This document shows, piece by piece, positions 649 to 56,072 of a stretch of 64,000 bases of DNA. Position 1 is the first letter of the stretch; every line of letters begins with the position of its first letter. This stretch comes from Escherichia coli (GTDB taxonomy: Bacteria > Pseudomonadota > Gammaproteobacteria > Enterobacterales > Enterobacteriaceae): assembly GCF_009931435.1 (NCBI RefSeq), contig NZ_CP043414.1, one strand, 5' to 3'. Below the pieces are notes generated by a model. The model ran no database searches and was not told where the DNA came from. It saw nothing but the letters and a program-made list of their open reading frames with translations. The translations under genes and the position numbers were made by a program.

Positions 649-705
649 AGGAAATACATCGCGTTAAAACGGAGGAAGCGCCGCCCGAAAGCGGCGCGAA
701 AGGAC

Positions 706-1995: not shown

Positions 1996-2551
1996 CAATT
2001 TCTCCTGGAGGAATGCAAATAATTCAGCTTTTAGCCAGTTCAGCCCGGGAAGGTGCCTGACCGTAAAAATGAAATCTGTCTATCGGCGATGGCTTAATCA
2101 TTTTCCGCCGTAATAATTTGAGGGCGGAAAGATACACACAAGTTATGTATCTATCAGTGATCTTGATCTCAAATACAATAATCTACTTGGAAGATAGATA
2201 ATCTCAACGCTTTACTCTGTAAATCAAAAGTAAAAGAGAATTTAAGGGCAATATTTGCCCATTAAACGACATCTGACCTCTTCCGGGGCGCGCAATATAT
2301 GTAGGTTGAGCTGAAAAAATCAATACTTTTAGTGAATAATGGGGATAATTTATTTTTCATAGCGATAAAATGTGGTTTGTGAAAACAGGGAAACGTTTGC
2401 GTTGCAATATAAATTGTATGACATATTAACTGTGATGATATTTATCGCGTGAGGATGGTAAGAAACATTTATATAACAAATGAAATGAATTGATGAGTAA
2501 GTAACCAAAAACGAGAAAACCCGGCAACAAACGTCACCGGGGAAGGGGAGA

Positions 2552-3916
2552 TTACGTGCAGATTTCGTAGCAAGGGATGTAGGCTGAGCCTGGCAACTTC
2601 ATACGATGCTGGGCAACAAAACCCTGTAGCAGGTCGTCCATACGACGCATAATCTCTTTATCGCCGTTGATTTTGTAAGGACCAAACTCTTCAATGGCGC
2701 GAATACCGACTTCTTTTACGTTACCCGCCACAATACCGGAGAACGCACGACGCAGATCAGCGGCCAAAACTTCTACTGGCTGATCCGGATACAGTTTCAG
2801 ATTAGCCATGTTCTCGTGAGACGGCTCAAACGGCATTTGCAGATCGGGCGCAATGCGCATTGACCAGTTAAAGCTGTAGGCATCGCCCGTATCGCGACGG
2901 TTTTCTTTCACCAGCGGCATCGATTTTTTCATCTGACGAGCGACTTCAGCGGCGTCATCAATGATGATGCGATAATGGCGTCGCGCGTTTTCTCCCAGCG
3001 TATGCACGACAAACTCGTCCAGTACGCGGAAGTAGTCTGCGCTCTCTTTCGGGCCGGTGAGGATCAATGGTAAAACCTGATCTTTGTTGGCCGGGTTCAT
3101 TAAAATTCCCAGCAAATACAGCAACTCTTCTGCCGTACCCACACCGCCAGGGAAGATAATGATACCGTGAGCGATACGGACAAACGCTTCCAGACGTTTT
3201 TCGATATCTGGCATGATGATCAATTCGTTGACCAGCGGGTTAGGCGGTTCAGCGGCGATAATCGACGGCTCTGTCATACCAATAAAACGACTGTCTTTGT
3301 AACGCTGCTGTGCGTGTCCGACCGCAGCACCTTTCATCGGCGCTTCCATCGCTCCCGGACCACAGCCGGTGCAGATATTCAGCTCACGCAGGCCCAGCTG
3401 ATTCCCGACGCGACGGGCATACAAATACTCGTTTTCGTTAATTGAGTGCCCGCCCCAGCAGACCACCATATTTGGCGCTTCACCGACATGCAGTGCGCGA
3501 GCGTTACGCAAGATGGAAAAGACCAGGTTAGTGATGTGGACGGAGTTGTCGAGATTCAGGTTGGGAAAACGAACGGTGTTATGGATTTGCCCGTAAACGA
3601 AGAGAATGTCACGCAGAACCGCGAACAAGTTGGCCTGCAAAGCGCGGATAATACGCCCATCGACAAAAGCTTCTTCCGGGGGATTAATCAGTTCCAGCTT
3701 TACGCCGCGTTCACGGCGCAGGACGTTAATATCGAAATTTTCAAAACGAGACAGCAATTCTTTGCTGTTATCGGTCAAACTACCGGAGTTCAGTACGGCA
3801 AGTGAACAGTTGCGAAACAGTTGATAGAGGTCGCTGCTGGCGGTGCGTTTAAGCATATCCACTTCCAGCTGCGACAACATATCCATGGAGCCAAGCGGGC
3901 TAATATGTGTAATCAA
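2552..3916 (-). CDS. ppnN: pyrimidine/purine nucleotide 5'-monophosphate nucleosidase (LOG-family, YgdH)
   Basis: 454-aa [28 protein letters not shown]..., recognised as the YgdH/PpnN family. Confidence 0.9.
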
Positions 3917-4027
3917 GAAAAACTCCTTATGGGACGAATATCGTCATTCCCTTTGATTACAATAGCCCTGCCTGATGACCTTTCACAACCTTCTGCGTGA
4001 ATCCAGCACGCAAAATTGAGAAAAAAT

Positions 4028-4876
4028 TTATTGCCGAACCAGTCTTGTGGTCGATGGGACAAAATCGCTATTACTGCGCCACGGGTTAATGTCCAGACCG
4101 CCACGACGGGTATAACGTGCGTAAACGCTCAATTTCTCTGGCTGGCAGAAGCGTAACAGGTCATTAAAGATGCGTTCCACGCACTGTTCGTGGAACTCGT
4201 TGTGATGACGGAATGAGACCAGGTAACGCAGCAGTTTTTCTCTGTCAATTTGGCGTCCACGATACTGAATTTGGATCGAACCCCAATCTGGTTGATGGGT
4301 GATCAGGCAGTTTGATTTCAGCAGGTGGCTGACGAGCGTCTCTTCTACTACTTTTTCACCACTGGTGGCATTCTCAAGATAGTCAGTAGTGAATTCATAG
4401 TTATCGATAGTGATATCCTGGTCATCAATGCAGGTGCCATTGAAATGACCTATCGGCTGGCCTTCCAGTTCATCAAGACGATATAACGCCACGCTAACCT
4501 TACCCTGAGCGCAAGTGCTTAAGTCGCGCTCCAGCGTCTGGCGCACCTCATCCCAGTTATTAAAACGCGTCTGGTTAAAACTGTTGAGATAAAGCTTAAA
4601 ACTCTTCGACTCAATCAGATTTACGCTGGTGTAATCAAGTTCAACATGACCGACAGCGACCTGCGGCAAACCTTTCGCATTCAGCCAGGAAAGTTCATAC
4701 AGCGTCCAGATATCCGTACCGTGAAAAGGCAGGTTATCCGCTTTCAGACCCAGCGGGTCGCGATTCAGGCTGCGTGGAACGCCTTGCAGTAGGCTAGCGT
4801 CATAGGTATCCCGGTAATCGGTTGATTTTCCAAGAGTCAGGCCCGCAAGTGCCTGATGGTTTGCATAAGAAGACAT
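4028..4876 (-). CDS. queF: NADPH-dependent 7-cyano-7-deazaguanine reductase
   Basis: 282-aa [26 protein letters not shown]..., ATG at 4876-4874; two-domain QueF type. Confidence 0.93.
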
Positions 4877-4943
4877 GTTTCACCGTCATAAACCAGATAA
4901 ACTAAACGACAAGTGTATCTGGTTTAAGTGAAGAGAGAAATTA

Positions 4944-5489
4944 GTGGACGATTTGACCGCACAAGCCCTGAAAGATTTTACTGCACGCTACTGCGATGCG
5001 TGGCATGAAGAGCATAAAAGCTGGCCGTTAAGTGAGGAACTGTACGGCGTTCCTTCACCGTGCATTATTTCAACCACCGAAGACGCTGTATACTGGCAAC
5101 CCCAGCCGTTTACCGGTGAACAAAATGTAAACGCGGTTGAACGTGCTTTTGATATTGTGATACAACCCACGGTTCATACTTTTTACACGACCCAGTTTGC
5201 CGGGGATATGCACGCGCAGTTTGGCGATATCAAACTGACATTGCTGCAAACCTGGAGTGAAGACGACTTCCGTCGGGTGCAGGAAAATCTGATTGGTCAT
5301 CTGGTGACTCAGAAAAGGCTAAAACTGCCGCCCACGCTATTTATCGCAACGCTGGAAGAAGAGTTAGAGGTCATCTCGGTGTGTAATCTCTCCGGTGAAG
5401 TGTGCAAAGAGACGCTGGGAACACGCAAACGGACGCATTTAGCCTCAAATCTTGCGGAATTCCTTAATCAACTTAAGCCTCTTCTGTAA
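4944..5489 (+). CDS. syd: SecY-interacting protein Syd
   Basis: 181-aa [46 protein letters not shown]...; GTG start at 4944. Confidence 0.9.
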
Positions 5490-5699
5490 TCCAAATACCC
5501 CATCTTGTTGTGAGAGATCTCTTACAGACTCTGTAGGAGATCGCCAGGAAATAAGCGAATACTTAAAAAGATAAGAATCGTTATTTTCATTTAAAATCAA
5601 TATATTGCTTGTTAATTCTTAACTTTCATATGAAATTTTCCTTAAGGCATTGTCTGTAAGCGCCTTGTAAGACTTCGCGAAAAAGACGATTCTATCTTC

Positions 5700-6066
5700 G
5701 TCGACAGGGAGTCAGACAACGAAGTGAACATCAGGATGATGACACTTCTGAAGGACACACCAGGAGGGTGTTTCAGGGAAAGGCTTCTGGATGAAGCGAA
5801 GAGGATGACGCAGGACGCGTTAAAGGACACCTCCAGGATGGAGAATGAGAACCGGTCAGGATGATTCGGTGGGTCAGGAAGGCCAAGGACACTTCAGGAT
5901 GAAGTATCATATCGGGGTGGTGTGAGCAGGAAGCAATAGTTCAGGATGAACGATTGGCCGCAAGGCCAGAGGAAAAGTTGTCAAGGATGAGCAGGGAGCA
6001 ACAAAAGTAGCTGGAATGCTGCGAAACGAACCGGGAGCACTGTGAATACAGTGCTCCCTTTTTTTA
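5700..6066 (+). ncRNA. csrB: CsrB small RNA (CsrA-sequestering)
   Basis: Starts GTCGACAGGGAGTCAGACAACGAAGTGAACATCAGGATGATGAC...; about 18-20 reiterated CAGGA(U/A)G / AGGA motifs across about 360 nt; ends in hairpin GGGAGCACTGTGAATACAGTGCTCCC plus T8 (6031-6066); no long ORF in the region. Confidence 0.93.
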
Positions 6067-6110
6067 TTCCTGCTATCCTTCGCGGCAGTTTTTCTTATTG
6101 AGGTTGCTTT

Positions 6111-6440
6111 ATGACCACTCATGACCGCGTTCGTCTCCAGTTGCAGGCGCTTGAAGCGTTACTGCGTGAACATCAGCACTGGCGAAACGATGAACCCCAG
6201 CCGCATCAATTTAACAGTACCCAACCGTTCTTTATGGACACCATGGAACCACTGGAGTGGTTGCAGTGGGGGCTGATCCCGCGAATGCACGATTTGTTAG
6301 ATAATAACCAGCCATTACCGGGCGCTTTTGCTGTTGCACCCTATTATGAAATGGCGCTGGCGACGGACCATCCGCAACGCGCGCTTATTCTGGCTGAGCT
6401 GGAAAAACTGGATGCTCTTTTTGCGGATGATGCGAGCTGA
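6111..6440 (+). CDS. yqcC: DUF446-family protein YqcC
   Basis: 109-aa ORF MTTHDRVRLQLQALEALLREHQHW...; GAGG RBS at 6100-6103; stop overlaps the truC start. Confidence 0.85.
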   Translation: MTTHDRVRLQLQALEALLREHQHWRNDEPQPHQFNSTQPFFMDTMEPLEWLQWGLIPRMHDLLDNNQPLPGAFAVAPYYEMALATDHPQRALILAELEKLDALFADDAS

Positions 6441-7222
6441 TGCTGGAAATAATCTACCAGGATGAATGGCTGGTTGCGGTAAATAAACCCTCCGGCTGGC
6501 TGGTTCACCGCAGCTGGCTGGATCGCGACGAGAAAGTAGTGGTCATGCAAACCGTGCGTGACCAGATTGGTCAGCATGTATTTACCGCGCATCGGCTGGA
6601 TCGACCGACGTCCGGCGTATTGCTGATGGGACTATCCAGCGAGGCCGGACGGCTGTTGGCACAACAGTTTGAACAGCACCAAATCCAGAAACGTTACCAT
6701 GCGATTGTGCGCGGCTGGCTGATGGAAGAGGCTGTGCTGGATTATCCGCTGGTGGAAGAACTGGACAAAATCGCTGATAAATTCGTCCGCGAAGATAAAG
6801 GTCCACAGCCAGCGGTGACACATTATCGCGGTCTGGCGACCGTAGAAATGCCTGTAGCGACCGGACGTTACCCGACTACGCGCTACGGTCTGGTGGAACT
6901 GGAGCCGAAAACAGGACGCAAGCATCAGCTCCGTCGCCATCTTGCCCACTTGCGCCATCCGATTATTGGCGACAGCAAACATGGTGATTTACGTCAAAAT
7001 CGTAGCGGTGCTGAACATTTTGGCCTTCAGCGGTTAATGCTGCATGCCAGTCAGTTGTCATTGACACATCCTTTTACTGGCGAGCCGTTGACTATTCACG
7101 CGGGCCTGGACGGCACCTGGATGCAGGCGTTATCACAATTTGGCTGGCGGGGTCTGCTTCCTGAAAATGAAAGGGTTGAGTTCAGTGCGCCATCGGGTCA
7201 GGATGGAGAGATAAGTTCCTAA
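6440..7222 (+). CDS. truC: tRNA pseudouridine(65) synthase
   Basis: 260-aa [27 protein letters not shown]... with RluA-family pseudouridine synthase motifs (HRLDRPTSG); start overlaps yqcC stop (TGATG). Confidence 0.92.
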
Positions 7223-27385: not shown

Positions 27386-28057
27386 ATGCAGTACCCGATT
27401 AACGAGATGTTCCAGACCCTGCAAGGTGAGGGTTACTTTACCGGCGTCCCCGCCATTTTTATTCGTTTACAGGGATGCCCGGTCGGCTGTGCCTGGTGCG
27501 ACACCAAACACACCTGGGAAAAGCTTGAGGATCGGGAAGTCTCCCTTTTCAGCATTCTGGCGAAGACCAAAGAGAGTGATAAGTGGGGGGCGGCGAGCAG
27601 TGAAGATTTGCTGGCTGTCATTGGTCGTCAGGGATACACCGCGCGGCATGTGGTGATTACGGGTGGTGAGCCTTGCATTCATGATTTGCTGCCACTGACT
27701 GACCTGCTCGAAAAGAACGGTTTTAGCTGCCAGATCGAAACCAGCGGTACTCATGAAGTACGCTGCACGCCGAATACCTGGGTTACCGTATCGCCAAAGC
27801 TGAACATGCGCGGCGGCTATGAAGTGTTGTCACAGGCACTGGAGCGAGCCAACGAAATCAAGCATCCAGTGGGACGCGTACGTGATATTGAAGCACTGGA
27901 TGAACTACTGGCAACGCTGACCGATGATAAACCACGAGTCATTGCACTGCAGCCGATTAGCCAAAAGGATGATGCCACACGTTTGTGCATTGAAACCTGC
28001 ATTGCGCGCAACTGGCGTTTGTCGATGCAAACACATAAATATTTAAATATTGCCTGA
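27386..28057 (+). CDS. queE: 7-carboxy-7-deazaguanine synthase (radical SAM)
   Basis: 223-aa ORF MQYPINEMFQTLQGEGYFTGVPAIFIRLQGCPVGCAWCDTKHTW... with CxxxCxxC radical-SAM cluster motif. Confidence 0.93.
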   Translation: MQYPINEMFQTLQGEGYFTGVPAIFIRLQGCPVGCAWCDTKHTWEKLEDREVSLFSILAKTKESDKWGAASSEDLLAVIGRQGYTARHVVITGGEPCIHDLLPLTDLLEKNGFSCQIETSGTHEVRCTPNTWVTVSPKLNMRGGYEVLSQALERANEIKHPVGRVRDIEALDELLATLTDDKPRVIALQPISQKDDATRLCIETCIARNWRLSMQTHKYLNIA

Positions 28058-28226
28058 TTAAACATTTATAAGCGTTATAAATGGGTGGAACCTGTAAAGA
28101 CTTCTGCTCATTTATATTCTTTGTCGCCTCTGAAAAACCTCCATTTTGCCCGTCCTGGACTAATCATTATCATTCTCTACAAATTCTCTGGCGTTAATTT
28201 TTCGCTGGAGTGAAAATTATTGCAGT

Positions 28227-28395
28227 GAAGTTTGGTAGATTTTAGTGGGTATAGAGTTATCTTAAACATTTACCTTTTTAATCAATGGATTAAGTGTTCT
28301 TTAACATAATGGATGTGTTGTTTGTGTGATCCTGTAAAGTTGGTAGATTGTGACTGGCTTAAAAAATCATTAATTAATAATAGGTTATGTTTAGA
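28227..28395 (+). promoter_or_regulatory. CRISPR leader of the queE-proximal array
   Basis: AT-rich; AGTTGGTAGATTGT motif at 28339-28352, 43 bp before repeat 1, and a related TTTGGTAGATTTT at 28231-28243. Confidence 0.7.
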
Positions 28396-29218
28396 GAGTT
28401 CCCCGCGCCAGCGGGGATAAACCGGCGGTAAAATTGTTGCTACCGTCTGGCCCTTGCGAGTTCCCCGCGCCAGCGGGGATAAACCGACGGTGCAGGATCT
28501 GTAATTCTTGCTCGCGATGAGTTCCCCGCGCCAGCGGGGATAAACCGAGTTATCAGGATTATTCCCGCTCCGCCGCCAGGAGTTCCCCGCGCCAGCGGGG
28601 ATAAACCGTCGTTTTTGTGGTGGGAGTGTGCGGATTGGTAGAGTTCCCCGCGCCAGCGGGGATAAACCGGCTGACATTGTCAGCTATAACCTTACAATGT
28701 GGAGTTCCCCGCGCCAGCGGGGATAAACCGACGTCCCGCTATTTCCTGGACAGTGTGTAGCGGAGTTCCCCGCGCCAGCGGGGATAAACCGGCGGCGCTA
28801 ACGTGATAATCACGATCAATTATGAGTTCCCCGCGCCAGCGGGGATAAACCGCGGGCGTTAACCTTTTTATAGGCATCTTCCTTGAGTTCCCCGCGCCAG
28901 CGGGGATAAACCGGCTTGCAGCAGCTGCGCCAACATCTGAATACGGAGTTCCCCGCGCCAGCGGGGATAAACCGCTTTTTCCCGTGACAAGATCCAGTTA
29001 ACTGTTGAGTTCCCCGCGCCAGCGGGGATAAACCGCATCACTGGACGCCCATTTGAATAACTCACAGGAGTTCCCCGCGCCAGCGGGGATAAACCGATTC
29101 AGCAAATAGCGAATTTCATAAATATGATGTGTTCCCCGCGCCAGCGGGGATAAACCGTACGTTAAACGCCATCTGTCATGGGTCGTCATGTGTTCCCCGC
29201 GCCAGCGGGGATAAACCA
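28396..29218 (+). CRISPR. type I-E CRISPR array: 14 repeats, 13 spacers (32-33 bp)
   Basis: 29-bp repeat GAGTTCCCCGCGCCAGCGGGGATAAACCG at 28396, 28458, 28519, 28580, 28641, 28702, 28763, 28824, 28885, 28946, 29007, 29068; last two repeats (29129, 29190) are GTGTT variants and the final one ends ...AAACCA. Confidence 0.97.
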
Positions 29219-29671
29219 CCATATAACCCGTTATCTCTTTCTCAAGTTTTTATATTAGCTGTACTTGTAATAAGCAACATATCCACATAACACCTCATGT
29301 TCAAAATAGTTCCCCATGCCAGATAAGTTCACAATTATCGATACAAAAAATCAAATTTAATCAAAGTGTTATATGTATAATCCTTAAACCGTTAAGAAAT
29401 TTTAATATATTATTTTTTTAATATTAATTAATGCCTGTTAATTTTTTCTTTAGAATAACAGTGTATTTTTTAAGCTTGTTATTCATTGATTAAGTAATAA
29501 ATCTGGAAGTTTGTCTTTGTTTTGAGGCTAATGAGTGGTTTTACATAACCGCCTCTATACGCTGTTGATGAATAGTTCTTATGAATAAAGATATCCAGTT
29601 CATACTTTAAGTGAAAATTGATAAAGTGCGATTCGTATTGTCTTTTATTCTAAAGACATCGAGTGTAGTTA

Positions 29672-29809
29672 ATATTCCTTGTAAAAACAGGGATAAACCG
29701 AACTAGTTAAAGTTTTTATTATGTTCCCTGCATCAGCGGGGATAAACCGGACTTGTTATCATTTTTTAAGTTGTCGAACTTATGTTCCCCGCGCCAGCGG
29801 GGATAACCA
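29672..29809 (+). CRISPR. degenerate mini-array remnant (about 3 decayed repeats, one clear 32-bp spacer)
   Basis: TTCCTTGTAAAAACAGGGATAAACCG (ends 29700), ATGTTCCCTGCATCAGCGGGGATAAACCG (29721-29749), 32-bp spacer 29750-29781, ATGTTCCCCGCGCCAGCGGGGATAACC (29782-29808). Confidence 0.75.
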
Positions 29810-29855
29810 TTCAGGTATGTTCAGGCCGGGCAGTTTCCCGCCCGGCCTTCCTCAC

Positions 29856-31334
29856 TTACGCATTCGACCAGCTCTGGATCGAATCTGCATTCCCCAACTC
29901 ACCATGCATCACTTCATACGATTTTTTCAGGATCACATCAGTGTGTTTGGTTAGGTCTTTGAAAATGCCTTTATTCATCGCGTCGTAGCGTTTGGCATTG
30001 CTCTCAATCGGCATAAAGATATCTTTCACGCGAACCATTTTGTCGACAGCCGTTGCGTAATCCGGGTATAGCCCCAGACCTATCGCTGTATTAATCGCGG
30101 CCCCCAGACTTGCGCAACCGTTAATGGCGTTACGGCGTGCCGGAAGGTTGAACACGTCGGCAAAAATCTGCATAAACAGATCGCTGTTCGAACCACCGCC
30201 AGTAATGATCACATGTTTCGCAAAGTGATTCATTTCATGACACATATTGTCGTAATTGTTCTTCAGCGTCAGCGCCACGCTTTCCAGTATCGAACGATAA
30301 ATCCATGCGTAATCCATGCTGGAATCAAAGCCGATCATAATTCCGCGTTTGTACGGTTCCCACGGATTGGTCAGCCAGTCCAGCACCGTCATCAGACCAT
30401 TACAGCCAGGCGGCACACAACAAGCTTTTTTGTTGAGCAAATCTTCCGGTGAAAGATCCTGCGCCCTGGCATCCTGAATTAACGATTCGCCTAGCATGTC
30501 GCGCAGCCAACTCACCGTCCACATACCTTTTCGAATACCATAACCTTCATACAGCAAGGTTTCCGGAATAGAAGACATGATCGGCCAGTACGCAACCGGA
30601 TCTTTCGGCAGTGCTTTGCCGTTCATCATCAACGCGATGTAGGTACCAAGAGAAATTACCGCCGTTTCATCATCCAGTAACCCTGCTCCCAGTGCTTCTA
30701 CCGGTTTATCACTGGTGGTACAAACAACGGGCAGTCCAACCGGGAAATGTGTCGCCAGCGCGGCTTGTGGTGTGATATGCCCAAGTACAGTGCCCGGCAT
30801 TTGCACATCAAAAAGCATCTGTCGGGGAATATTAAACTTCTCCATTACCGCGGTATCTTCGCTCCATGCCCAGGTCTTATAATCCACCGGCCACTGACCA
30901 AAATAGTTGGCGATATTGTCTTTAAACTCGCCGGTTAAACGGTGTGTCAGATAACCTGAAAAAGAGGTGACATATGCCACATCAGGATTGATGTGCTCGT
31001 AGGGACGTGTTACGCGTGCATCCTGCCAGCTAATCAACGGCGCAGCTGGCGTGCCATCGGCTTTCAATAACGCACGGCAGCAACGGATAGATCCCAGACC
31101 AATGCCGACAATATCTTCTTTATTCCCGGCAAACTGGCTCATCAAATCGTGACCAGCAAAACATAATGATGCCCATAAATCATCGTCAGGATGTTCTGCG
31201 GTATCGGCATCTGGAGTGTGCATCGGTTGTAATAAGCCTTTGCCTTCGCAAACCACGTTACCTTCCAGATCGTACATCACCACTTTTGTGCTCTGACTTC
31301 CGCCATCAATCCCTATGATGTATTTTTTCGACAT
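29856..31334 (-). CDS. ygcE: FGGY-family sugar (pentulose/hexulose-type) kinase
   Basis: 492-aa ORF MSKKYIIGIDGGSQSTKVVMYDLEGNVV... (FGGY N-terminal signature). Confidence 0.88.
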   Translation of the reverse strand: MSKKYIIGIDGGSQSTKVVMYDLEGNVVCEGKGLLQPMHTPDADTAEHPDDDLWASLCFAGHDLMSQFAGNKEDIVGIGLGSIRCCRALLKADGTPAAPLISWQDARVTRPYEHINPDVAYVTSFSGYLTHRLTGEFKDNIANYFGQWPVDYKTWAWSEDTAVMEKFNIPRQMLFDVQMPGTVLGHITPQAALATHFPVGLPVVCTTSDKPVEALGAGLLDDETAVISLGTYIALMMNGKALPKDPVAYWPIMSSIPETLLYEGYGIRKGMWTVSWLRDMLGESLIQDARAQDLSPEDLLNKKACCVPPGCNGLMTVLDWLTNPWEPYKRGIMIGFDSSMDYAWIYRSILESVALTLKNNYDNMCHEMNHFAKHVIITGGGSNSDLFMQIFADVFNLPARRNAINGCASLGAAINTAIGLGLYPDYATAVDKMVRVKDIFMPIESNAKRYDAMNKGIFKDLTKHTDVILKKSYEVMHGELGNADSIQSWSNA

Positions 31335-46139: not shown

Positions 46140-46309
46140 TTTATATTGTTTTTGTGAATATTATGCCTGTGTTTATTATTTATATATATCACAGATGAAA
46201 ATCATTGAATTATTCATAATGTAAATATTTTATTGAACGATATATATCACAGATAATTTTTAATATATGCGTAAATATCCTTTAAGTTTTACTGAAGGAT
46301 AAAAACATT
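46140..46309 (+). promoter_or_regulatory. AT-rich cas3 upstream region with 15-bp direct repeat
   Basis: ATATATATCACAGAT at 46182-46196 and 46240-46254 within a strongly AT-rich tract immediately upstream of the cas3 start. Confidence 0.45.
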
Positions 46310-48967
46310 GTGACTTTCTTTGATTTCTGGGGAAAAACCCGACGTGGCGAGAAAGAGGGTGGCGACGATTATCACCTTCTTTGCTGGCATTCGCTGGATG
46401 TAGCCGCGATAGGCTATTTAATGGTCAAAAACAACTGTTTCGGGCTGGCTGACTATTTTCGTCAATTAGGTTTCGCTGACACGGATCAGGCAGCACAATT
46501 TTTCGCCTGGTTGTTGTGCTGGCACGATACTGGAAAATTTGCCCGCTCATTTCAGCAACTTTACCTGCACCCACAACTCAAGGTTCCGGAAGGCGCAAGA
46601 AAGAATTACGAAAAGATCTCTCATTCAACGCTGGGTTACTGGTTGTGGCATCATTATTTAATTGAATGTGAAGAGTTGCTTCCTTCATCTTCACTCTCTT
46701 TGCGCAAACTTAAACGAGTAATAGATATGTGGATGCCCGTGACGACCGGGCATCATGGTCGGCCTCCTGACCGTATCGATGAACTGGACAACTTTCTGCC
46801 TGAAGACAAAGCTGCCGCACGGGATTTTCTCCTTGAAATCAAGGTACTGTTTCCGCTCATCGAGATCCCTACATTCTGGGATGATGACGAGGGCGTTGAA
46901 CTTATAAAACATTTTTCCTGGTATATCTCTGCAACCGTCGTACTCGCAGACTGGACGGGATCGTCAACGCGGTTTTTTCCACGCGTTGCACAGGCAATGG
47001 ATATTAAAGATTACTGGCAGAAGGCTTTAGTTCAGGCTCAAAACGCATTAACCGTCTTTCCCCCAAAAGCAGAAAGCGCGCCTTTCACTGGAATTAATAC
47101 GCTGTTTCCTTTTATTGAGAACCCAACACCGTTACAGCAAAAGGTGTTGGATCTGGATATCAGCCAGCCAGGACCACAGTTGTTTATTCTGGAAGATGTG
47201 ACTGGCGCAGGTAAAACAGAAGCGGCGCTTATCCTGGCGCACAGGTTGATGTCTGCGGGGAAAGCACAGGGTTTGTTTTTTGGCCTGCCAACAATGGCAA
47301 CGGCCAATGCCATGTACGATAGGCTGGTAAAAACCTGGCTTGCTTTCTATTCGCCACAATCCCGCCCCAGCCTGGTGCTGGCACACAGCGCTCGTTCGCT
47401 AATGGATCGCTTTAACGCATCGCTGTGGTCTGGTGATTTTGTGGGGTCAGAAGAACCGGATGAACAAGCGTTCAGTCAGGGATGTGCGGCCTGGTTTGCT
47501 GACAGTAACAAGAAGGCGTTGCTGGCTGAAATTGGCGTCGGCACGCTGGATCAGGCGATGATGGCGGTGATGCCGTTCAAACATAATAATCTGCGGCTTC
47601 TGGGGCTGAGTAACAAAATCCTGCTAGCCGATGAGATCCACGCCTGTGACGCTTATATGTCGTGCATTCTTGAAGGGCTGATCGAGCGGCAGGCGCGTGG
47701 CGGAAACAGCGTTATTTTGCTTTCTGCTACGTTGTCTCAACAGCAGCGTGACAAACTCGTCGCCGCCTTTGCGCGTGGTGCAGAGGGCCAGCAAGAAGCT
47801 CCGTTGCTGGAAAAAGATGATTATCCCTGGCTGACGCATGTCACGAAATCCGATGTGCATTCGCACCGGGTAGCGACGCGCAAAGACGTTGAGCGCAGCG
47901 TGAGTGTGGGTTGGCTTCATAGCGAACAAGAGTGTATTGCGCGTATCGAATCGGCGGTAAGTCAGGGGAAATGCATCGCCTGGATTCGGAATTCTGTCGA
48001 TGACGCCATCCAGGTTCATCGTCAGCTGCTTGCCCGCGGCGTCATTCCTGCTTCCAGCCTTTCACTTTTTCATAGCCGCTTTGCTTTCAGCGATCGCCAG
48101 CGAATTGAAACGGAGACGCTGGCACGCTTTGGTAAAGAAGACTGTTCACAGCGTGCCGGAAAAGTCCTCATTTGTACTCAGGTCCTGGAGCAGAGCGTCG
48201 ACTGCGACCTGGACGAAATGATTTCCGACCTTGCCCCTGTTGATTTACTGATCCAGCGAGCAGGGCGATTACAGCGACATATCCGCGATATTAATGGTCA
48301 GTTAAAGCGTGACGGTAAAGACGAGCGTCACCCTCCTGTATTGCTGATTCTGGCCCCCGTCTGGAACGACTCTCCGGGTGAAGAATGGTTTGGCTGTGCC
48401 ATGCGTAACAGTGCATTTGTCTATCCCGATCATGGGCGAATCTGGTTGACGCAGCGTGTGCTGCGTGAACAAGGCGCGATTCAGATGCCACACTCAGCCC
48501 GGCTTCTGATTGAATCAGTCTACGGTGAGGACGTGGTAATGCCGGAAGGGTTTGCCCGCAGCGAGCAGGAGCAAGTGGGCAAATACTACTGCGATCGTTC
48601 AATGGCTAATAAGTTTGTGCTGAACTTCAGGCCCGGCTATGCCGCCAATATCAACGATTACCTCCCGGAAAAACTGTCGACACGTCTGGCTGAAGAGTCT
48701 GTTTCCCTGTGGCTGGCTAGCTGTATTGGCGGTGTGGTGAAGCCTTATGCCACCGGTGCACACGCATGGGAAATGAGCGTTGTCAGAGTGCGCCAAAGCT
48801 GGTGGAAAAAACATCGGGATAAGTTTTCTTTACTGGAAGGGGATGCGTTCAGGCAGTGGTGCGTTGAACAGCGGCAAGATCCGGAGATGGCAAACGTGAT
48901 TTTGGTCACCGATGACGAAAGTTGTGGATATTCGGCTACGGAGGGATTGATTGGCAAGGTTGGTTGA
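46310..48967 (+). CDS. cas3: Cas3 HD-nuclease/helicase (type I-E)
   Basis: 885-aa ORF (GTG start, AAGGA RBS); HD motif ...LLCWHDTGKF..., Walker A VTGAGKTEA, DEIH box LLADEIHACD, then helicase C-terminal region. Confidence 0.93.
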   Translation: MTFFDFWGKTRRGEKEGGDDYHLLCWHSLDVAAIGYLMVKNNCFGLADYFRQLGFADTDQAAQFFAWLLCWHDTGKFARSFQQLYLHPQLKVPEGARKNYEKISHSTLGYWLWHHYLIECEELLPSSSLSLRKLKRVIDMWMPVTTGHHGRPPDRIDELDNFLPEDKAAARDFLLEIKVLFPLIEIPTFWDDDEGVELIKHFSWYISATVVLADWTGSSTRFFPRVAQAMDIKDYWQKALVQAQNALTVFPPKAESAPFTGINTLFPFIENPTPLQQKVLDLDISQPGPQLFILEDVTGAGKTEAALILAHRLMSAGKAQGLFFGLPTMATANAMYDRLVKTWLAFYSPQSRPSLVLAHSARSLMDRFNASLWSGDFVGSEEPDEQAFSQGCAAWFADSNKKALLAEIGVGTLDQAMMAVMPFKHNNLRLLGLSNKILLADEIHACDAYMSCILEGLIERQARGGNSVILLSATLSQQQRDKLVAAFARGAEGQQEAPLLEKDDYPWLTHVTKSDVHSHRVATRKDVERSVSVGWLHSEQECIARIESAVSQGKCIAWIRNSVDDAIQVHRQLLARGVIPASSLSLFHSRFAFSDRQRIETETLARFGKEDCSQRAGKVLICTQVLEQSVDCDLDEMISDLAPVDLLIQRAGRLQRHIRDINGQLKRDGKDERHPPVLLILAPVWNDSPGEEWFGCAMRNSAFVYPDHGRIWLTQRVLREQGAIQMPHSARLLIESVYGEDVVMPEGFARSEQEQVGKYYCDRSMANKFVLNFRPGYAANINDYLPEKLSTRLAEESVSLWLASCIGGVVKPYATGAHAWEMSVVRVRQSWWKKHRDKFSLLEGDAFRQWCVEQRQDPEMANVILVTDDESCGYSATEGLIGKVG

Positions 48968-49063
48968 TATGCCTGCGACAGGATTCTCTGAATAGTTGAT
49001 ACACAAAAAAGGATGGAAGGATGGATAACCGACCTGGGATGGTCTTTTTACGAGAGGATGCGT

Positions 49064-50626
49064 ATGAACTCGTTTTCACTTCTGACAACCCCGTGGTTGC
49101 CCGTTCGTTATAAAGACGGAACGACAGGCAAACTGGCGCCAGTCGATCTGGCGGATGAAAATGTTGTCGATATCGCTGCGCCGCGGGCAGATCTCCAGGG
49201 TGCGGCATGGCAGTTTTTGCTGGGACTACTACAAACCAGCTTCGCGCCCAAAAATCACGGTCGTTGGGATGATATATGGGAAGACGGACTGGAAGCTGAA
49301 AAGCTAAGGGAAGCATTGCTGTCTTTAGAACATGCTTTCCAGTTTGGCCCAGATTCCCCTTCATTTATGCAGGATTTCGAGGCGCTTACGGGAGATAAAG
49401 TTCCTGTCGCTTCGTTACTGCCTGAAATTCCCGGCGCTCAAACAACGAAGTTCAATAAAGACCACTTTATTAAGCGTGGCGTGACTGAACACATATGCCC
49501 TCATTGTTCCGCGTTAGCGCTGTTTTCCCTACAGTTAAATGCGCCGTCAGGCGGCAAAGGCTATCGCACCGGTTTGCGCGGCGGTGGGCCAATGACGACG
49601 CTGATTGAATTACAGGAATATCAGGGCAATCAACAAACACCCTTGTGGCGCAAACTGTGGCTCAACGTGATGCCGCAGGATGAATCTGACTTACCGCTAC
49701 CCAAAAAATTTGGCGATCTGGTTTTCCCCTGGCTTGGCCCGACGCGTACCAGTGAACTGGCCGGTGCGGTGGTAACTGATGATCAGGTCAACAAACTCCA
49801 GGCGTACTGGGGAATGCCTCGGCGCATACGTGTTGATTTTAATACCACGACAGTCGGCAACTGCGATATTTGCGGTGAGCAGAGCGACGCGCTCCTGAGC
49901 CTGATGACGACCAAAAATTACGGTGCGAATTATGCCATGTGGCAGCATCCCTTAACGCCCTACCGTATACCACTTAAAGAGGGCGGCGAGCTTTACTCGG
50001 TTAAACCACAACCGGGCGGTTTAATCTGGCGCGACTGGCTAGGACTTATCGAAACGGGTAAGTCAGAAAACAATACGGAACTTCCCGCGCTGGTGGTGAA
50101 ACTCTTTAATGCCAGCAGTCTGAAACAGGCAAAAGTGGGCCTGTGGGGATTTGGCTATGATTTCGACAACATGAAAGCGCGCTGTTGGTACGAACACCAT
50201 TTCCCGCTACTGCTCAATAAAAAAGAAGGCCAGATACCAAAGCTGCGGCTGGCTGCGCAAACGGCTTCACGGATTCTAAGTCTGTTACGGAGTGCATTGA
50301 AAGAAGCATGGTTCTCCGATCCAAAAGGTGCACGGGGTGATTTCAGTTTTGTGGATATCGACTTCTGGAACAAAACTCAGCATCGCTTCCTGAGGTTAGT
50401 GCGTCAAATTGAAGAAGGTCAGGAGCCGGATGAATTACTCAGCAAATGGCAAAAGGAAATGTGGTTATTCGCGCGTCAGGATTTTGACGAGCGGGTATTC
50501 ACTAATCCTTATGAGCCCGTTGATTTGAAACGCGTCATGACCGCGCGCAAGAAATATTTTACAACATCGGCGGAGAAGCAAAGTGCTAAAGCCGCCAGGG
50601 AGAAAAAGCAGGAGGCTGCTGAATGA
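49064..50626 (+). CDS. casA: Cse1/CasA, Cascade large subunit
   Basis: ORF track starts 49013; the ATG at 49064 has a GAGAGG RBS and gives MNSFSLLTTPWLPVRYKDGTTGK..., a Cse1-family N-terminus; about 520 aa. Confidence 0.85.
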   Translation: MNSFSLLTTPWLPVRYKDGTTGKLAPVDLADENVVDIAAPRADLQGAAWQFLLGLLQTSFAPKNHGRWDDIWEDGLEAEKLREALLSLEHAFQFGPDSPSFMQDFEALTGDKVPVASLLPEIPGAQTTKFNKDHFIKRGVTEHICPHCSALALFSLQLNAPSGGKGYRTGLRGGGPMTTLIELQEYQGNQQTPLWRKLWLNVMPQDESDLPLPKKFGDLVFPWLGPTRTSELAGAVVTDDQVNKLQAYWGMPRRIRVDFNTTTVGNCDICGEQSDALLSLMTTKNYGANYAMWQHPLTPYRIPLKEGGELYSVKPQPGGLIWRDWLGLIETGKSENNTELPALVVKLFNASSLKQAKVGLWGFGYDFDNMKARCWYEHHFPLLLNKKEGQIPKLRLAAQTASRILSLLRSALKEAWFSDPKGARGDFSFVDIDFWNKTQHRFLRLVRQIEEGQEPDELLSKWQKEMWLFARQDFDERVFTNPYEPVDLKRVMTARKKYFTTSAEKQSAKAAREKKQEAAE

Positions 50627-51159
50627 GTATTGTAAAAGAGGAGCACAAAGCCACGCTGCGCAAATGGCACGAGGAATTGCAGGAAAAACGCGGCAATCGT
50701 GCCAGTCTGCGGCGTAGTACGACGGTTAATGATGTTTGTTTGTCAGAAGGGTTTCGTTCTCTGCTGATGCAGACCCACACGTTGTGGAAAGTTGAAGCGC
50801 AAGAGTGGCGTTTTACCGCACTGGCACTGGTCGCTGCAGTTAGCGCCAATGTAAAAGCCATTGATGAACGGCAGCCTTTTGCCGCGCAGCTGGCGGCAGT
50901 AATGTCAGAAGGGCGGTTTTCGCGCCTGTCGGCAGTAAAAACGCCGGATGATTTACTGCGCCAGTTACGTCGCGCGGTCAAATTATTAAACGGTTCCGTC
51001 AATCTTATCTCTTTGGCAGACGATATTTTCCGCTGGTGCCAGGAGAGTGACGACCTGCTCAACCATCACCGCCGTCAGCAGCGGCCAACAGAATTTATCC
51101 GTATCCGCTGGGCGCTGGAATATTACCAGGCTGGCGACGCCGATAACGAACAAAATTAA
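50623..51159 (+). CDS. casB: Cse2/CasB, Cascade small subunit
   Basis: 178-aa ORF; GGAGG RBS; ATGA overlap with the casA stop; operon position. Confidence 0.85.
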   Translation: MSIVKEEHKATLRKWHEELQEKRGNRASLRRSTTVNDVCLSEGFRSLLMQTHTLWKVEAQEWRFTALALVAAVSANVKAIDERQPFAAQLAAVMSEGRFSRLSAVKTPDDLLRQLRRAVKLLNGSVNLISLADDIFRWCQESDDLLNHHRRQQRPTEFIRIRWALEYYQAGDADNEQN

Positions 51160-51173
51160 TAAAGGACTATCTC

Positions 51174-52229
51174 ATGACGACATTTATTCAGCTCCATTTG
51201 TTAACCGCTTACCCTGCAGCCAACCTTAACCGTGATGACACCGGTGCGCCGAAAACCGTGGTGCTGGGTGGAGCAACGCGTCTGCGCGTTTCCTCGCAAA
51301 GTCTGAAACGTGCGTGGCGCACTTCTGCACTTTTTGAACAGGCGCTGGCGGGCCATATTGGTATTCGTAGTGGGCGTATCGCGCGCGAGGCAGCAACTAT
51401 CATGATTGAGAAAGGAATCGAAGAAAAAAAAGCCATCGAATGGGCGGCAGATATTGCCGATTATCTTGGTAAAGCCAAAAAAGACAAAAAAACAAAAGAT
51501 CCGCTCACTAACGCTGAAACTGAACAGCTCGTCCATATCAGCCCTGCAGAATTTGACGCCGTAAAAGCGCTGGCCCATCAACTGGCAGAAGAAAAGCGCG
51601 CGCCAAAAGAGGACGATCTCGCTTTGTTACGTAAAGATCGTATGGCGGTAGATATCGCCATGTTTGGTCGTATGCTGGCGAATAAACCCGAGTTTAATGT
51701 TGAAGCCGCCTGTCAGGTCGCGCACGCGTTTGGTGTCAGTGAAACGATTGTCGAAGATGATTTTTTCACCGCCGTTGATGATTTGCGCCAGGCCTCTGAA
51801 GATGCTGGTGCAGGGCATCTTGGTGAAACTGGGTTTGGTTCTGCGCTGTTCTACACCTATATCTGCATTGATAAAGATCTGCTGGTCGAAAACCTCGGCG
51901 GTGACGAAGCATTAGCTAATCAGACCCTGCGCGCCTTTACGGAAGCAGCGTTTAAAGTTTCCCCAACCGGTAAACAAAACAGCTTTGCCAGCCGTGCCTA
52001 CGCCTCCTGGGCGCTGGCAGAAAAAGGCACCGAACAACCGCGTTCTCTGGCGGCGGCTTTCTATGAACCCATTAATGGCACACGTCAGTTAGATGTGGCA
52101 GTGCAGCGTATTACAACGCTTCGCGAAAACATGAATACGGTTTACGAACAGAAGACCGAATGCGCAAGTTTTGACGTGATGAACAAACAGGGAAGCATGA
52201 AGGACGTGCTGGACTTTATCTGCGCGTAA
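51174..52229 (+). CDS. casC: Cas7e/CasC, Cascade backbone
   Basis: 351-aa ORF MTTFIQLHLLTAYPAANLNRDDTGAPKTVVLGGATRLRVSSQSLKRAWR... (Cas7 RAMP signature). Confidence 0.9.
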   Translation: MTTFIQLHLLTAYPAANLNRDDTGAPKTVVLGGATRLRVSSQSLKRAWRTSALFEQALAGHIGIRSGRIAREAATIMIEKGIEEKKAIEWAADIADYLGKAKKDKKTKDPLTNAETEQLVHISPAEFDAVKALAHQLAEEKRAPKEDDLALLRKDRMAVDIAMFGRMLANKPEFNVEAACQVAHAFGVSETIVEDDFFTAVDDLRQASEDAGAGHLGETGFGSALFYTYICIDKDLLVENLGGDEALANQTLRAFTEAAFKVSPTGKQNSFASRAYASWALAEKGTEQPRSLAAAFYEPINGTRQLDVAVQRITTLRENMNTVYEQKTECASFDVMNKQGSMKDVLDFICA

Positions 52230-52239
52230 GGGGCGGCTT

Positions 52240-52986
52240 ATGAGCCAATATCTGATTTTTCAGCTTCATGGGCCAATGGCATCCTGGGGCGTTGATGCAC
52301 CCGGTGAGGTGCGTCATACCCATGAACTGCCTTCGCGTTCAGCATTGCTGGGGCTGCTGGCTGCCGGGTTAGGGATACGGCGTGATGACACCGAATGCTT
52401 AAACGCGTTTAATCGCCACTATTCACTGGTGGTTTGCGCCAGCCGTAACCCGCGCTGGGCACGGGATTATCACACGGTCCAGATGCCAAAAGAGGTGCGT
52501 AAAGCGCGTTATTTCAGCCGTCGCGAAGAGTTGAGCGACCCTGATCTTCTAAGCGCGATTATCTCCCGGCGCGACTACTACACCGATGCCTGGTGGATGG
52601 TGGCCGTGGCAACAACAGCTGATGCGCCTTACAGCCTCGAACAGTTGCAGGAAGGTTTACGCCATCCGGTTTTTCCGCTTTATCTGGGGCGAAAAAGCCA
52701 TCCGCTGGCGTTACCCCTTGCGCCGTTACTGCTCGAAGGCAACGCGTCTGATGCCTTACGTACCGCATATCAACAGTATCAGGATCGTTTCCACGAACTA
52801 AAAGTCTCACTCCCGAAACTTCAGGATGAATGCTGGTGGGAAGGGGAACACGACGGCCTGGTCGCGAGCAAAATATTACGCCGCCGGGATGTTCCTTTAA
52901 ATCGTCAGCAGTGGCTGTTTGGGGAACGCACTGTCAATCAGGGGCCGTGGCTCAGCAAGGAGGAACCATGTACCTCTCAAGAATAA
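52240..52986 (+). CDS. casD: Cas5e/CasD
   Basis: 248-aa ORF MSQYLIFQLHGPMASWGVDAPGEVRHTHELPSRSALLGLLAAGLGIRRDD... (Cas5e N-terminal signature). Confidence 0.9.
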   Translation: MSQYLIFQLHGPMASWGVDAPGEVRHTHELPSRSALLGLLAAGLGIRRDDTECLNAFNRHYSLVVCASRNPRWARDYHTVQMPKEVRKARYFSRREELSDPDLLSAIISRRDYYTDAWWMVAVATTADAPYSLEQLQEGLRHPVFPLYLGRKSHPLALPLAPLLLEGNASDALRTAYQQYQDRFHELKVSLPKLQDECWWEGEHDGLVASKILRRRDVPLNRQQWLFGERTVNQGPWLSKEEPCTSQE

Positions 52987-53614
52987 CCTTACATACCGGC
53001 CAGCTTTCCCCAGCGCAGTTGCTGCATCTGGTGGATCGCGGTGAATATGTGATGCATCAGTGGCTGTGGGATCTTTTCCCTGGCGGCAAAGAAAGGCAAT
53101 TTCTTTATCGTCGGGAAGAACTCCAGGGCGCGTTTCGCTTTTTTGTCCTGTCGCAGGAACGCCCGGCGGAAAGTGAAACGTTCACCATCGAATGCCGGTC
53201 ATTTGCGCCGGAGCTGCGTACCGGACAATCCCTTTTTTTCAACCTGCGAGCGAATCCAACAGTCTGTAAAGCGGGTAAGCGCCACGATCTGCTGATGGAG
53301 GCGAAACGGCAGGTGAGGGGGCAGGCGGAAGGAAGTGATGTCTGGTTGCATCAACAACAGGCGGCGCTGGGCTGGCTGGCTGCGCAGGGAGAGAGAAGTG
53401 GTTTTACACTGCTGGATACCTCGGTCGATGCCTACCGACAACAGCAACTGCGGCGGGAAAATGCCCGGCAACTGATCCAGTTCAGTAGCGTGGATTATAC
53501 GGGGATGCTGACGGTCACCGAGCCAGGGTTATTTCTGCAACGTCTCTGCCTGGGGTATGGCAAAAGCCGGGCGTTCGGCTGTGGTCTGATGTTAATCAAA
53601 CCCGGAGCAGAGGC

Positions 53615-53618
<4 letters not shown>
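52968..53618 (+). CDS. casE: Cas6e/CasE, pre-crRNA endoribonuclease
   Basis: ORF track starts 52830; the ATG at 52968 with AGGAGG RBS gives MYLSRITLHTGQLSPAQLLHL...; contains FNLRANP and C-terminal glycine-rich GYGKSRAFGCGLM motifs. Confidence 0.88.
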
Positions 53619-54828
<1,210 letters not shown>

Positions 54829-54924
54829 GTTACCCGTTCTTTAAAAATAAGGAAATGTTTGAATTTAGTTGGTAGATTGTTGATGTGGAATAAAATTGTT
54901 TAAAAACAGATACGTATGCTTAGT
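54829..54924 (+). promoter_or_regulatory. CRISPR leader of the cas2-proximal array
   Basis: AT-rich 96 bp; AGTTGGTAGATTGT at 54868-54881, 43 bp upstream of the first repeat. Confidence 0.8.
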
Positions 54925-56050
54925 GTGTTCCCCGCGCCAGCGGGGATAAACCGTGGATTATGACGCCAGAGAGCTTCCTGTTTGCGTGTTCCCCGCGCCA
55001 GCGGGGATAAACCGCTGGCTAATAACATCCCACTGAATATTATTTCGTGTTCCCCGCGCCAGCGGGGATAAACCGAGGTGTGGCATGCGGGGAATTATGA
55101 TCCGGTAGTGTTCCCCGCGCCAGCGGGGATAAACCGTGACAACGGCCGGCCGCTCTTTTTGCGGTCATGTGTTCCCCGCGCCAGCGGGGATAAACCGATC
55201 ATCGGCATCATCTCGTGATACTCATCCGGCGTGTTCCCCGCGCCAGCGGGGATAAACCGCCCAGGCTTTACGTGAGCTGGCGGATGTGGCCGTGTTCCCC
55301 GCGCCAGCGGGGATAAACCATACGGTCAAGCGATATCAGGGGTACTGTGTCGTGTTCCCCGCGCCAGCGGGGATAAACCGGGCGCCGCATCTTTATCGTA
55401 AAGCATGTAAAGGTGTTCCCCGCGCCAGCGGGGATAAACCGACCGCTCACACCCAGACAAGCGCCACTAACGTGTGTTCCCCGCGCCAGCGGGGATAAAC
55501 CGAACGCCGCATCAGCTAAATACGCTAAAAAAATGTGTTCCCCGCGCCAGCGGGGATAAACCGCGGCTGATACTCAGGAGCAGGCCAGAGAGCGTGTGTT
55601 CCCCGCGCCAGCGGGGATAAACCGTACCACCTGTGTATTGAGTTACGTCGCCGGGGGTGTTCCCCGCGCCAGCGGGGATAAACCGGAGCTTCATCGGTGG
55701 TTCTGGGAGCAACGGGAGTGTTCCCCGCGCCAGCGGGGATAAACCGGCACAAGTGACTACATCAAGGATGGGGAATGGGTGTTCCCCGCGCCAGCGGGGA
55801 TAAACCGATTAACATTGCAATTGAATTGACGCGTATGAGGTGTTCCCCGCGCCAGCGGGGATAAACCGCAGGCAGCACGGCGGGTTTTGCCCGGATATTT
55901 GTGTTCCCCGCGCCAGCGGGGATAAACCGCAAAACCAATAGGTGCTTTCCACATTGCAGAAGTGTTCCCCGCGCCAGCGGGGATAAACCGCTCTCGGTTC
56001 TGGGGTACTGTTACCCATAACTGAGCTCCCCCGCGTCAGCGGGGGAACTC
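54925..56050 (+). CRISPR. type I-E CRISPR array: 19 repeats (18 canonical plus degenerate terminal), 18 spacers
   Basis: 29-bp repeat GTGTTCCCCGCGCCAGCGGGGATAAACCG at 54925, 54986, 55047, 55108, 55169, 55231, 55292, 55352, 55413, 55474, 55535, 55596, 55657, 55718, 55779, 55840, 55901, 55962; terminal degenerate GAGCTCCCCCGCGTCAGCGGGGGAACTC (56023-56050); spacers 31-33 bp. Confidence 0.97.
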
Positions 56051-56072
56051 CCAGCTCCCATTTTCAAACGCC

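Follow-up and report, generated by a model that had tools for sequence, protein, structure and literature searches.

The GAGTT/GTGTT repeat switch in the queE-side CRISPR array of an Escherichia coli genome: block structure, probable history and candidate origins

Two forms of a single repeat meet in the CRISPR array beside queE in the stretch of Escherichia coli DNA analysed here (64,000 nucleotides of contig NZ_CP043414.1, referred to as the window), which raises the question of which form is the older, how the change between them came about, and what it reveals of the order in which the spacers were acquired. The array occupies exactly positions 28396-29218 on the + strand and consists of 14 repeats of 29 bp (R1-R14) and 13 spacers (S1-S13), of which 12 are 32 nt long and S1 is 33 nt. 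Repeats R1-R12, which start at 28396, 28458, 28519, 28580, 28641, 28702, 28763, 28824, 28885, 28946, 29007 and 29068, all read GAGTTCCCCGCGCCAGCGGGGATAAACCG; R13 at 29129 is GTGTT...CCG and R14 at 29190 is GTGTT...CCA. Repeat reading thus bore out exactly the division that the original prediction had drawn between twelve GAGTT repeats and two GTGTT repeats. The sole difference between the two forms (R1-R12 compared with R13) lies at position 2, and they are called A-type and T-type below. With random placement, the chance that two T-type repeats among 14 would both fall at the leader-distal end is 1/91. The array accordingly divides into a leader-proximal, younger block of R1-R12 with S1-S11 (28396-29096); a boundary spacer, S12 (29097-29128), with a GAGTT repeat on its 5' side and a GTGTT repeat on its 3' side; and an oldest block of R13, S13 and the terminal R14 (29129-29218).

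The array is the standard E. coli type I-E array 'CRISPR-II' (CRISPR2.3 in the naming of the Mojica group), lying between queE and ygcE, and the flanks of the locus are 98-99% identical to E. coli chromosomes. The gene order is the canonical E. coli type I-E arrangement: queE (ygcF; 27386-28057, + strand, an open reading frame at the position where queE is annotated in relatives), the leader (leader2.3; 28276-28395, +), the array, a 0.5-kb trailer (29219-29698, +), a two-repeat remnant array (CRISPR2.2; 29721-29810, +), ygcE (29856-31334, - strand, an open reading frame also annotated in relatives), cys and ygc genes, cas3-casABCDE-cas1-cas2, a second leader, a second array ('CRISPR-I', alias CRISPR2.1) and iap. 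The 29-bp repeat GWGTTCCCCGCGCCAGCGGGGATAAACCG, the spacers of 32-33 nt and the period of 61-62 bp are those of CRISPR-II, as are the position in the queE-ygcE interval with the conserved leader2.3 on the 5' side and the CRISPR2.2 remnant about 0.5 kb on the 3' side, and the presence in the same genome of type I-E cas3, casABCDE, cas1 and cas2. The leader ends ...AATAGGTTATGTTTAGA (...TAGGTTATGTTTAGA), as in K-12, and its last 120 nt represent a haplotype, H1, found identically in N96, R32_14_1F, the MFDS strains, 2013C-4282 and 24A16. The remnant comprises two degenerate ATGTT repeats and one conserved spacer, which every E. coli locus examined, K-12 among them, also has.

The orientation of the array is confirmed because four observations agree: a conserved AT-rich leader precedes 28396; the array closes, at its other end, with the degenerate ...CCA repeat; spacers in common with other strains occur only at that end; and the protospacers of S11 and S13, located in E. 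coli prophage genes for replication and terminase, respectively, each have AAG directly on their 5' side. These are the two spacers with detectable targets, and in both the AAG is on the leader-proximal side, as a CRISPR-II array requires. When the concatenated spacers were searched by megablast against 5,426 complete E. coli genomes, only S12 and S13 had matches in arrays (two genomes each); S1-S11 were absent from the arrays of these genomes, and S1-S10 were absent from these genomes altogether. Separately, S9 (28914-28945) was seen to be near-identical (at most two mismatches) to spacer 3 of GF43, and spacers 7 and 15 of the SMS-3-5 cas-side array are equally close to spacers in the queE-side arrays of PK8277 and O104. 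The strains are unrelated and the positions do not correspond, or lie in the opposite array; these pairs suggest that one protospacer was sampled independently or that spacers were passed between arrays.

The behaviour expected of repeat variants in this system has been worked out previously. Insertion of a spacer by Cas1-Cas2 at the leader end duplicates the leader-adjacent repeat, and a variant at that position is inherited by all later repeats while older repeats retain the older variant. In experiments in BL21-AI, the GAG and GTG forms were exchanged between the two repeats of a short array, and it was invariably repeat 1 that the new repeat resembled (Yosef, Goren & Qimron 2012, PMC3384332); the same authors remarked on an array whose repeats mostly share one variant while repeat 14 carries the alternative one. 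First-repeat copying had earlier been inferred from 'stretches of conserved repeat variants' by Touchon & Rocha (2010, PMC2886076), who also reported that terminal repeats are modified in 86-100% of cases. Diez-Villasenor 2013 (PMC3737337) names the two variants CRISPR-A and CRISPR-T and shows both to be competent for acquisition; at the cas-side array, the repeat variant is linked to the leader type (leader-A or leader-T) and the cas variant (cas-EO or cas-EK). That paper uses the opposite strand, so that its CRISPR-A is GTGTT here and its CRISPR-T is GAGTT. Like CRISPR-A and CRISPR-T, the two forms in the window differ at a single base, the second counted from the leader-proximal end, which is either A or T. 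GAGTT is one of two species-wide alleles and not, as had been supposed, a mutation private to this array. Both forms support acquisition and processing, and the variant has no evident functional role. The available text of Diez-Villasenor 2013 (PMC3737337) and of Almendros 2014 (PMC3903273) describes the queE-side leader as alike in all strains, and we found in it no description of a switch within a queE-side array. The phenomenon and its mechanism are nevertheless already known, being textbook for this system, and nothing about them is novel.

Contiguous blocks with a single boundary are what first-repeat duplication should leave behind, and this is what was found throughout. In a survey of 21 distinct E. 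coli queE-side arrays, plus K-12, the letters at position 2 are contiguous, with at most one switch, in 21 of 21, and likewise in K-12; among the E. coli and outgroup arrays examined, there is a single boundary in all six that hold at least two copies of each variant. Interspersed GAGTT and GTGTT repeats, the pattern that would speak against the original prediction, were sought in these 21 arrays and seen in none, though the polarity of the blocks runs both ways. An order of GAGTT proximal and GTGTT distal is confined to the spacer group of the window. The reverse order is found in 8 of the 21 (A34, GF43, D4, PK8277, TBU0218, 25-06685, 602354 and others) and also in K-12, where six T-type repeats are followed by an A-type ...CCA repeat; seven of the queE-side arrays are A-type throughout and two T-type throughout. 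The expectation that GAGTT repeats would always be leader-proximal consequently fails at the level of the species. From the spacers that the 21 arrays share it follows that the allele switched independently three times or more, from A to T as well as from T to A. Leader-proximal blocks are also formed by further single-nucleotide variants of the repeat, namely 14C>T, carried by eight repeats of the cas-side array of 24A16, and 9C>T, carried by 18 repeats in SMS-3-5. In an outgroup scan of about 60 Enterobacterales species, one genome per species, GTGTT is overwhelmingly the form of the repeat; GAGTT blocks have arisen independently in Enterobacter sp. ENT03 (29 A-type then six T-type repeats), Pseudocitrobacter vendiensis (19 T-type then ten A-type), Leminorella and Entomohabitans, and apart from isolated single-repeat variants the outgroup variants are again in blocks.

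The survey yielded some observations of a different kind. A double-variant repeat, GAGTTCCCCACGTCAGCGGGG... (G10A+C13T, of which G10A breaks a hairpin pair), is leader-adjacent in the queE-side arrays of N96, MFDS1022581, 24A16 and 2017-02-2CC, which have unrelated spacer sets, and it is also repeat 9 of the GF43 queE-side array; as a first repeat it has not been propagated to the next repeats. This pattern suggests that recombination is spreading the leader-R1 segment or, alternatively, that acquisition is blocked once the variant is in place. In 24A16 the 14C>T variant makes up cas-side repeats 1-8 and also recurs as a single internal repeat, repeat 9, of the queE-side array, which is either inter-array exchange or coincidence. 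A rule based on the last base of the leader (AGA followed by GAG, AGT followed by GTG) was considered and rejected, since GAGTT follows leaders ending ...AGA, ...ACA and ...AGT, and GTGTT can follow ...AGA.

The direction of the switch in this particular array was assessed from its relatives. Among the 5,426 complete E. coli genomes, S12 is present in MFDS1022581 and MFDS1019527 and S13 in N96 and R32_14_1F; there is no close relative that shares the spacers of the GAGTT block and would let the boundary be followed one spacer at a time. The arrays of N96 and R32_14_1F end ...GAGTT-S13-GTGTT(CCA), and that of MFDS1022581, the MFDS array that was read, ends GAGTT-S12-GTGTT(CCA). The newer repeats in N96, R32_14_1F and the two MFDS strains are all GAGTT, and the terminal repeat is the same GTGTT...CCA; the variant and spacer comparison across related strains thus supports the proposed polarity within this group, with GTGTT distal and GAGTT newer. 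The trailer (480 of 480 positions) and the last 120 nt of the leader are identical in the window strain, N96, R32_14_1F and MFDS, while the GAGTT-block spacers of the four related arrays are entirely different from those of the window. Because relatives sharing S12 or S13 keep the GTGTT...CCA terminal repeat, GTGTT appears to be the older state in the lineage of this array, and the switch would precede the divergence of the window strain from these relatives. The claim that GTGTT is ancestral therefore stands for this lineage, where the four relatives and the Enterobacterales consensus agree with it, but not as a rule for the species, given the A-type fossil repeat of the cas-side array (see below) and the occurrence of both polarities. 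Upstream of the conserved part of the leader, between queE and the array (28060-28275), the window differs from N96, R32_14_1F and MFDS at 9-12 sites, which points to a putative breakpoint of recombination, some 120 nt ahead of the array, in the lineage of the window.

The following history is proposed. The array would have been founded with GTGTT repeats, S13 and then S12 being acquired, to give an ancestor of the form leader-T-S12-T-S13-T(CCA), which is the most parsimonious reconstruction. The leader-adjacent repeat would then have become GAGTT in an ancestor shared by the window strain, N96, R32_14_1F and both MFDS strains, after which the lineages would have gained different spacers, all with A-type repeats, eleven of them (S11 to S1) in the lineage of the window. 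The MFDS lineage would have lost S13 by recombination between R13 and R14. In N96 and R32_14_1F the repeat before S13 is GAGTT and not GTGTT, and the proposed history therefore requires an additional deletion of S12; this could plausibly have occurred by recombination of an A-type repeat with R13, the hybrid repeat retaining A because position 2 is at its extreme 5' end. The order of these events, like the origin of the switch, we infer from the comparisons above. That the GAGTT/GTGTT switch is the established A/T dimorphism at position 2, passed on by first-repeat copying, and that the array has the history proposed, we put at a probability of about 85%.

On this history, the relative timeline for 12 acquisition events that was originally read from the array shortens to 11 (S11 to S1), with S12 at the boundary, since 12 GAGTT repeats correspond to one switched repeat plus 11 duplications. 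The count of 12 holds only if the change arose in the repair of the gaps left by the insertion of S12 itself. Eleven is moreover a minimum, because deletions between repeats occur in this spacer group.

The change in the leader-adjacent repeat was originally taken to be a de novo T-to-A transversion in this array, subsequently propagated by duplication. The propagation is well founded, on the 21 of 21 blocks, the outgroups and the experiments of Yosef 2012 (PMC3384332), but de novo mutation cannot be separated from recombination or conversion over a short tract at the junction of leader and R1. In the second case the leader and first bases of R1 would have come from an array of GAGTT type, through a short tract of homologous recombination or gene conversion. 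We consider this the somewhat better-favoured origin, because the leader groups with all-GAGTT arrays and the trailer with an all-GTGTT array. The window-group leader shows no difference in 120 positions from those of the all-GAGTT arrays of 24A16 and 2013C-4282, whereas its trailer differs from theirs at 34-38 of 480 positions and is closest to that of the all-GTGTT array of WP4-S18-ESBL-09 (5 of 480), the leader of which differs from that of the window group at 3 of 120. This discordance cannot be assigned specifically to the boundary between A-type and T-type repeats, because the whole 26-58 kb region proved in a 500-bp sliding comparison to be a fine recombination mosaic, and the incongruence could have arisen instead by recombination in the lineage of 24A16 and 2013C-4282. 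Leader-R1 segments do seem to move between strains, since the G10A+C13T first repeat fronts unrelated spacer sets in four of them; and the blocks of A34 (six T-type repeats, two GAGCT, two GAGTT) and of GF43 (eight T-type repeats upstream of the G10A+C13T repeat) are beyond any single mutation of R1. Any such tract must have ended inside R1, because the arrays of the window group have no donor spacers in common, and a tract of this kind is formally indistinguishable from a point mutation. Later propagation is the same in either event.

A transversion within this array is the simplest single-step change and remains a serious, if lesser, candidate. Variants such as 14C>T (24A16), 9C>T (SMS-3-5) and 4T>C (A34) arise and propagate in the same way; the GAGTT blocks in several distant genera indicate that position 2 tolerates, and recurrently acquires, an A; and no donor spacers are detectable. 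Against it, the two alleles toggle in both directions at least three times in 21 E. coli arrays, so that exchange of co-circulating alleles would be easier, and the leader and trailer of the window group have the affinities just described. The intermediate that mutation predicts, an H1 leader followed by a GTGTT first repeat, is absent from the 5,426 genomes, although H1 is so rare (three genomes within one mismatch) that this is weak evidence. A population-scale search for the common K-12-type leader haplotype (H2) joined to an exact GAGTT first repeat also gave no match. Routes other than recombination or conversion and de novo mutation account for the small remaining share of the probability.

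Among the wider alternatives to the history proposed here, it is improbable that the GAGTT block was imported whole, with some of its spacers, from the array of another strain by recombination within a repeat, the boundary being then the junction of two arrays. It is documented that CRISPR loci of E. coli recombine and exchange modules (Kupczok 2015; Almendros 2014, PMC3903273), the block sequences of A34 and GF43 are not to be explained by single mutations of R1, and the region is mosaic; but S1-S11 are in no array of the 5,426 complete genomes, and because the four related arrays have entirely different spacers in their GAGTT blocks, an import shared by the group would have held no spacers at all. 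Still less can be said for independent decay of R13 and R14 at a non-functional trailer end. Terminal repeats are commonly degenerate (86-100% modified; Touchon & Rocha, PMC2886076) and R14 has the usual ...CCA end, yet R13 and R14 coincide in both the site and the base concerned and are otherwise perfect, T at position 2 is the consensus across the Enterobacterales, and the related strains have the same GTGTT state; the relatives, the survey of 21 arrays and the Enterobacterales scan together effectively refute this explanation.

The second array allows a further check on which allele is ancestral. It lies at 54925-56051 on the + strand, on the iap side of cas2, behind a leader (54829-54924, +) that ends ...ACGTATGCTTAGT and is unlike the K-12 cas-side leader. 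Eighteen well-formed repeats (54925-55990) are all GTGTT, which upholds the statement that every repeat of this array has that form as far as these go, but a degenerate terminal repeat overlooked in the original prediction, GAGCTCCCCCGCGTCAGCGGGGGAACTCC at 56023-56051, begins GAGCT and has A at position 2. Between them is the 18th spacer (55991-56022), CTCTCGGTTCTGGGGTACTGTTACCCATAACT, which also occurs in 2013C-4282, N96, 24A16 and 2017-02-2CC; spacers 11-14 and the last spacer are common to N96 and other relatives. The cas-side array is thus a run of 18 T-type repeats followed by an A-type fossil, a polarity the reverse of that on the queE side, and all E. coli cas-side arrays examined, including that of K-12, end in a degenerate repeat beginning GAG or GAA. 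Because its oldest repeat is A-type, likeness to the cas-side array is no argument for the ancestry of GTGTT, and the ancestry of the position-2 allele within E. coli is locus-specific, even though T is the family consensus.

The whole cas operon spans 46267-54828 (+ strand), with casA-casB-cas7-cas5-cas6e-cas1-cas2 at 49064-54828. Its products are 30% (Cas7), 24% (CasA) and 84% (Cas1 and Cas2) identical to those of K-12, and since the Cascade proteins are only 24-30% identical the operon belongs to the type I-E variant other than that of K-12 (cas-EO type, here called the non-K-12 variant) and is accompanied by a cas-side leader of its own, ending ...GCTTAGT. This leader ending accompanies GTGTT repeats in nine genomes of the non-K-12 type, and ...TTTTAGA accompanies GAGTT in K-12 and WP4-S18-ESBL-09, so that in the window, too, the cas-side repeat type co-occurs with the matching leader type and cas variant. 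According to Diez-Villasenor 2013, the two cas variants also differ in PAM, AAG alone serving the K-12 variant and both AAG and ATG the non-K-12 one. In cas3 (46267-48967, + strand) there is a 1-nt insertion in a T run some 20 nt past the ATG (AAGTTTTACTG versus AAGTTTACTG in SMS-3-5), which brings in a stop codon at 46300-46302; an open reading frame of 885 amino acids starts from a GTG in frame at 46310. The gene is annotated as frameshifted by PGAP in the four closest relatives, 2013C-4282, N96, 24A16 and 2017-02-2CC. Judged from the frameshift, interference may be impaired while the adaptation genes are intact.

In nine of the ten genomes in which both arrays were read, a small and phylogenetically non-independent sample, the allele at position 2 of the leader-adjacent repeat in one array is the opposite of that in the other: GTGTT on the cas side and GAGTT on the queE side with the non-K-12 cas variant, and the reverse with the K-12 variant, GF43 being the exception. 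It might be asked whether the difference between the arrays serves a function, such as adjusting them to the cas variant present or keeping the two apart. We think this very unlikely. Position 2 sits in the single-stranded stretch 5' of the K-12 crRNA hairpin, and is not known to have a role in recognition. The exception of GF43 and the nature of the sample also weigh against a function, and in published assays both variants work with either Cas1-Cas2 variant (PMC3384332; PMC3737337). A different reading of the same opposition is that the switch in the queE-side array could be a trace left when one cas module gave way to another. The old GTGTT repeats of the window are accompanied by a trailer closest to that of WP4-S18-ESBL-09, a strain with the K-12 variant, and the old GAGTT terminal repeat of K-12 by a trailer identical to that of CT02, which has the non-K-12 variant. 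We regard the idea as a doubtful one; if it were true, the boundary in the window would separate spacers acquired under two Cas machineries, and there would be an undescribed coupling between exchange of the cas module and the leader and first repeat of a distant array.

Taken as the product of first-repeat copying, the array is a clean natural illustration of the first repeat as template, which matters little beyond annotation. The single-nucleotide difference gives one relative time marker, the switch separating S12 and S13, which came earlier, from S11 to S1, which came later; a relative timeline is already given by spacer order, to which only this marker is added. For E. coli CRISPR typing and the study of array history, blocks at position 2 are useful lineage markers, but neither allele can be presumed ancestral in order to polarise them, since the species shows switches either way, and recombination and deletions between repeats can shift or erase the boundary.

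The closest familiar counterpart is K-12 MG1655, which has the same two loci (on the iap/cas2 side and the queE/ygcE side), the same 29-bp repeat and the same queE-side leader, and in which likewise the two arrays have different variants at position 2 and a terminal repeat carrying the other variant. The arrangement is a mirror image of that in the window: the K-12 cas-side array has 12 GAGTT repeats and a last repeat of GTGTT type, and its queE-side array six GTGTT repeats and a GAGTT...CCA terminal repeat. K-12 differs in having the other cas variant, with Cascade proteins 24-30% identical, and a different cas-side leader. In passing, Yosef 2012 (PMC3384332) prints the repeats of K-12 as mostly GTG and those of BL21-AI as mostly GAG; the MG1655 record has GAGTT in 12 of 13 cas-side repeats, and in Diez-Villasenor 2013 (PMC3737337) the BL21 array is of the other type, so that the strain assignment in the former paper appears to be swapped. 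The cas-side array of the window fits the combination of cas-EO, leader-A and CRISPR-A set out in Diez-Villasenor 2013. With the work of Yosef 2012 (PMC3384332) the queE-side array shares both the mechanism and the GAG/GTG label, the one being an experiment in BL21-AI and the other a natural array.
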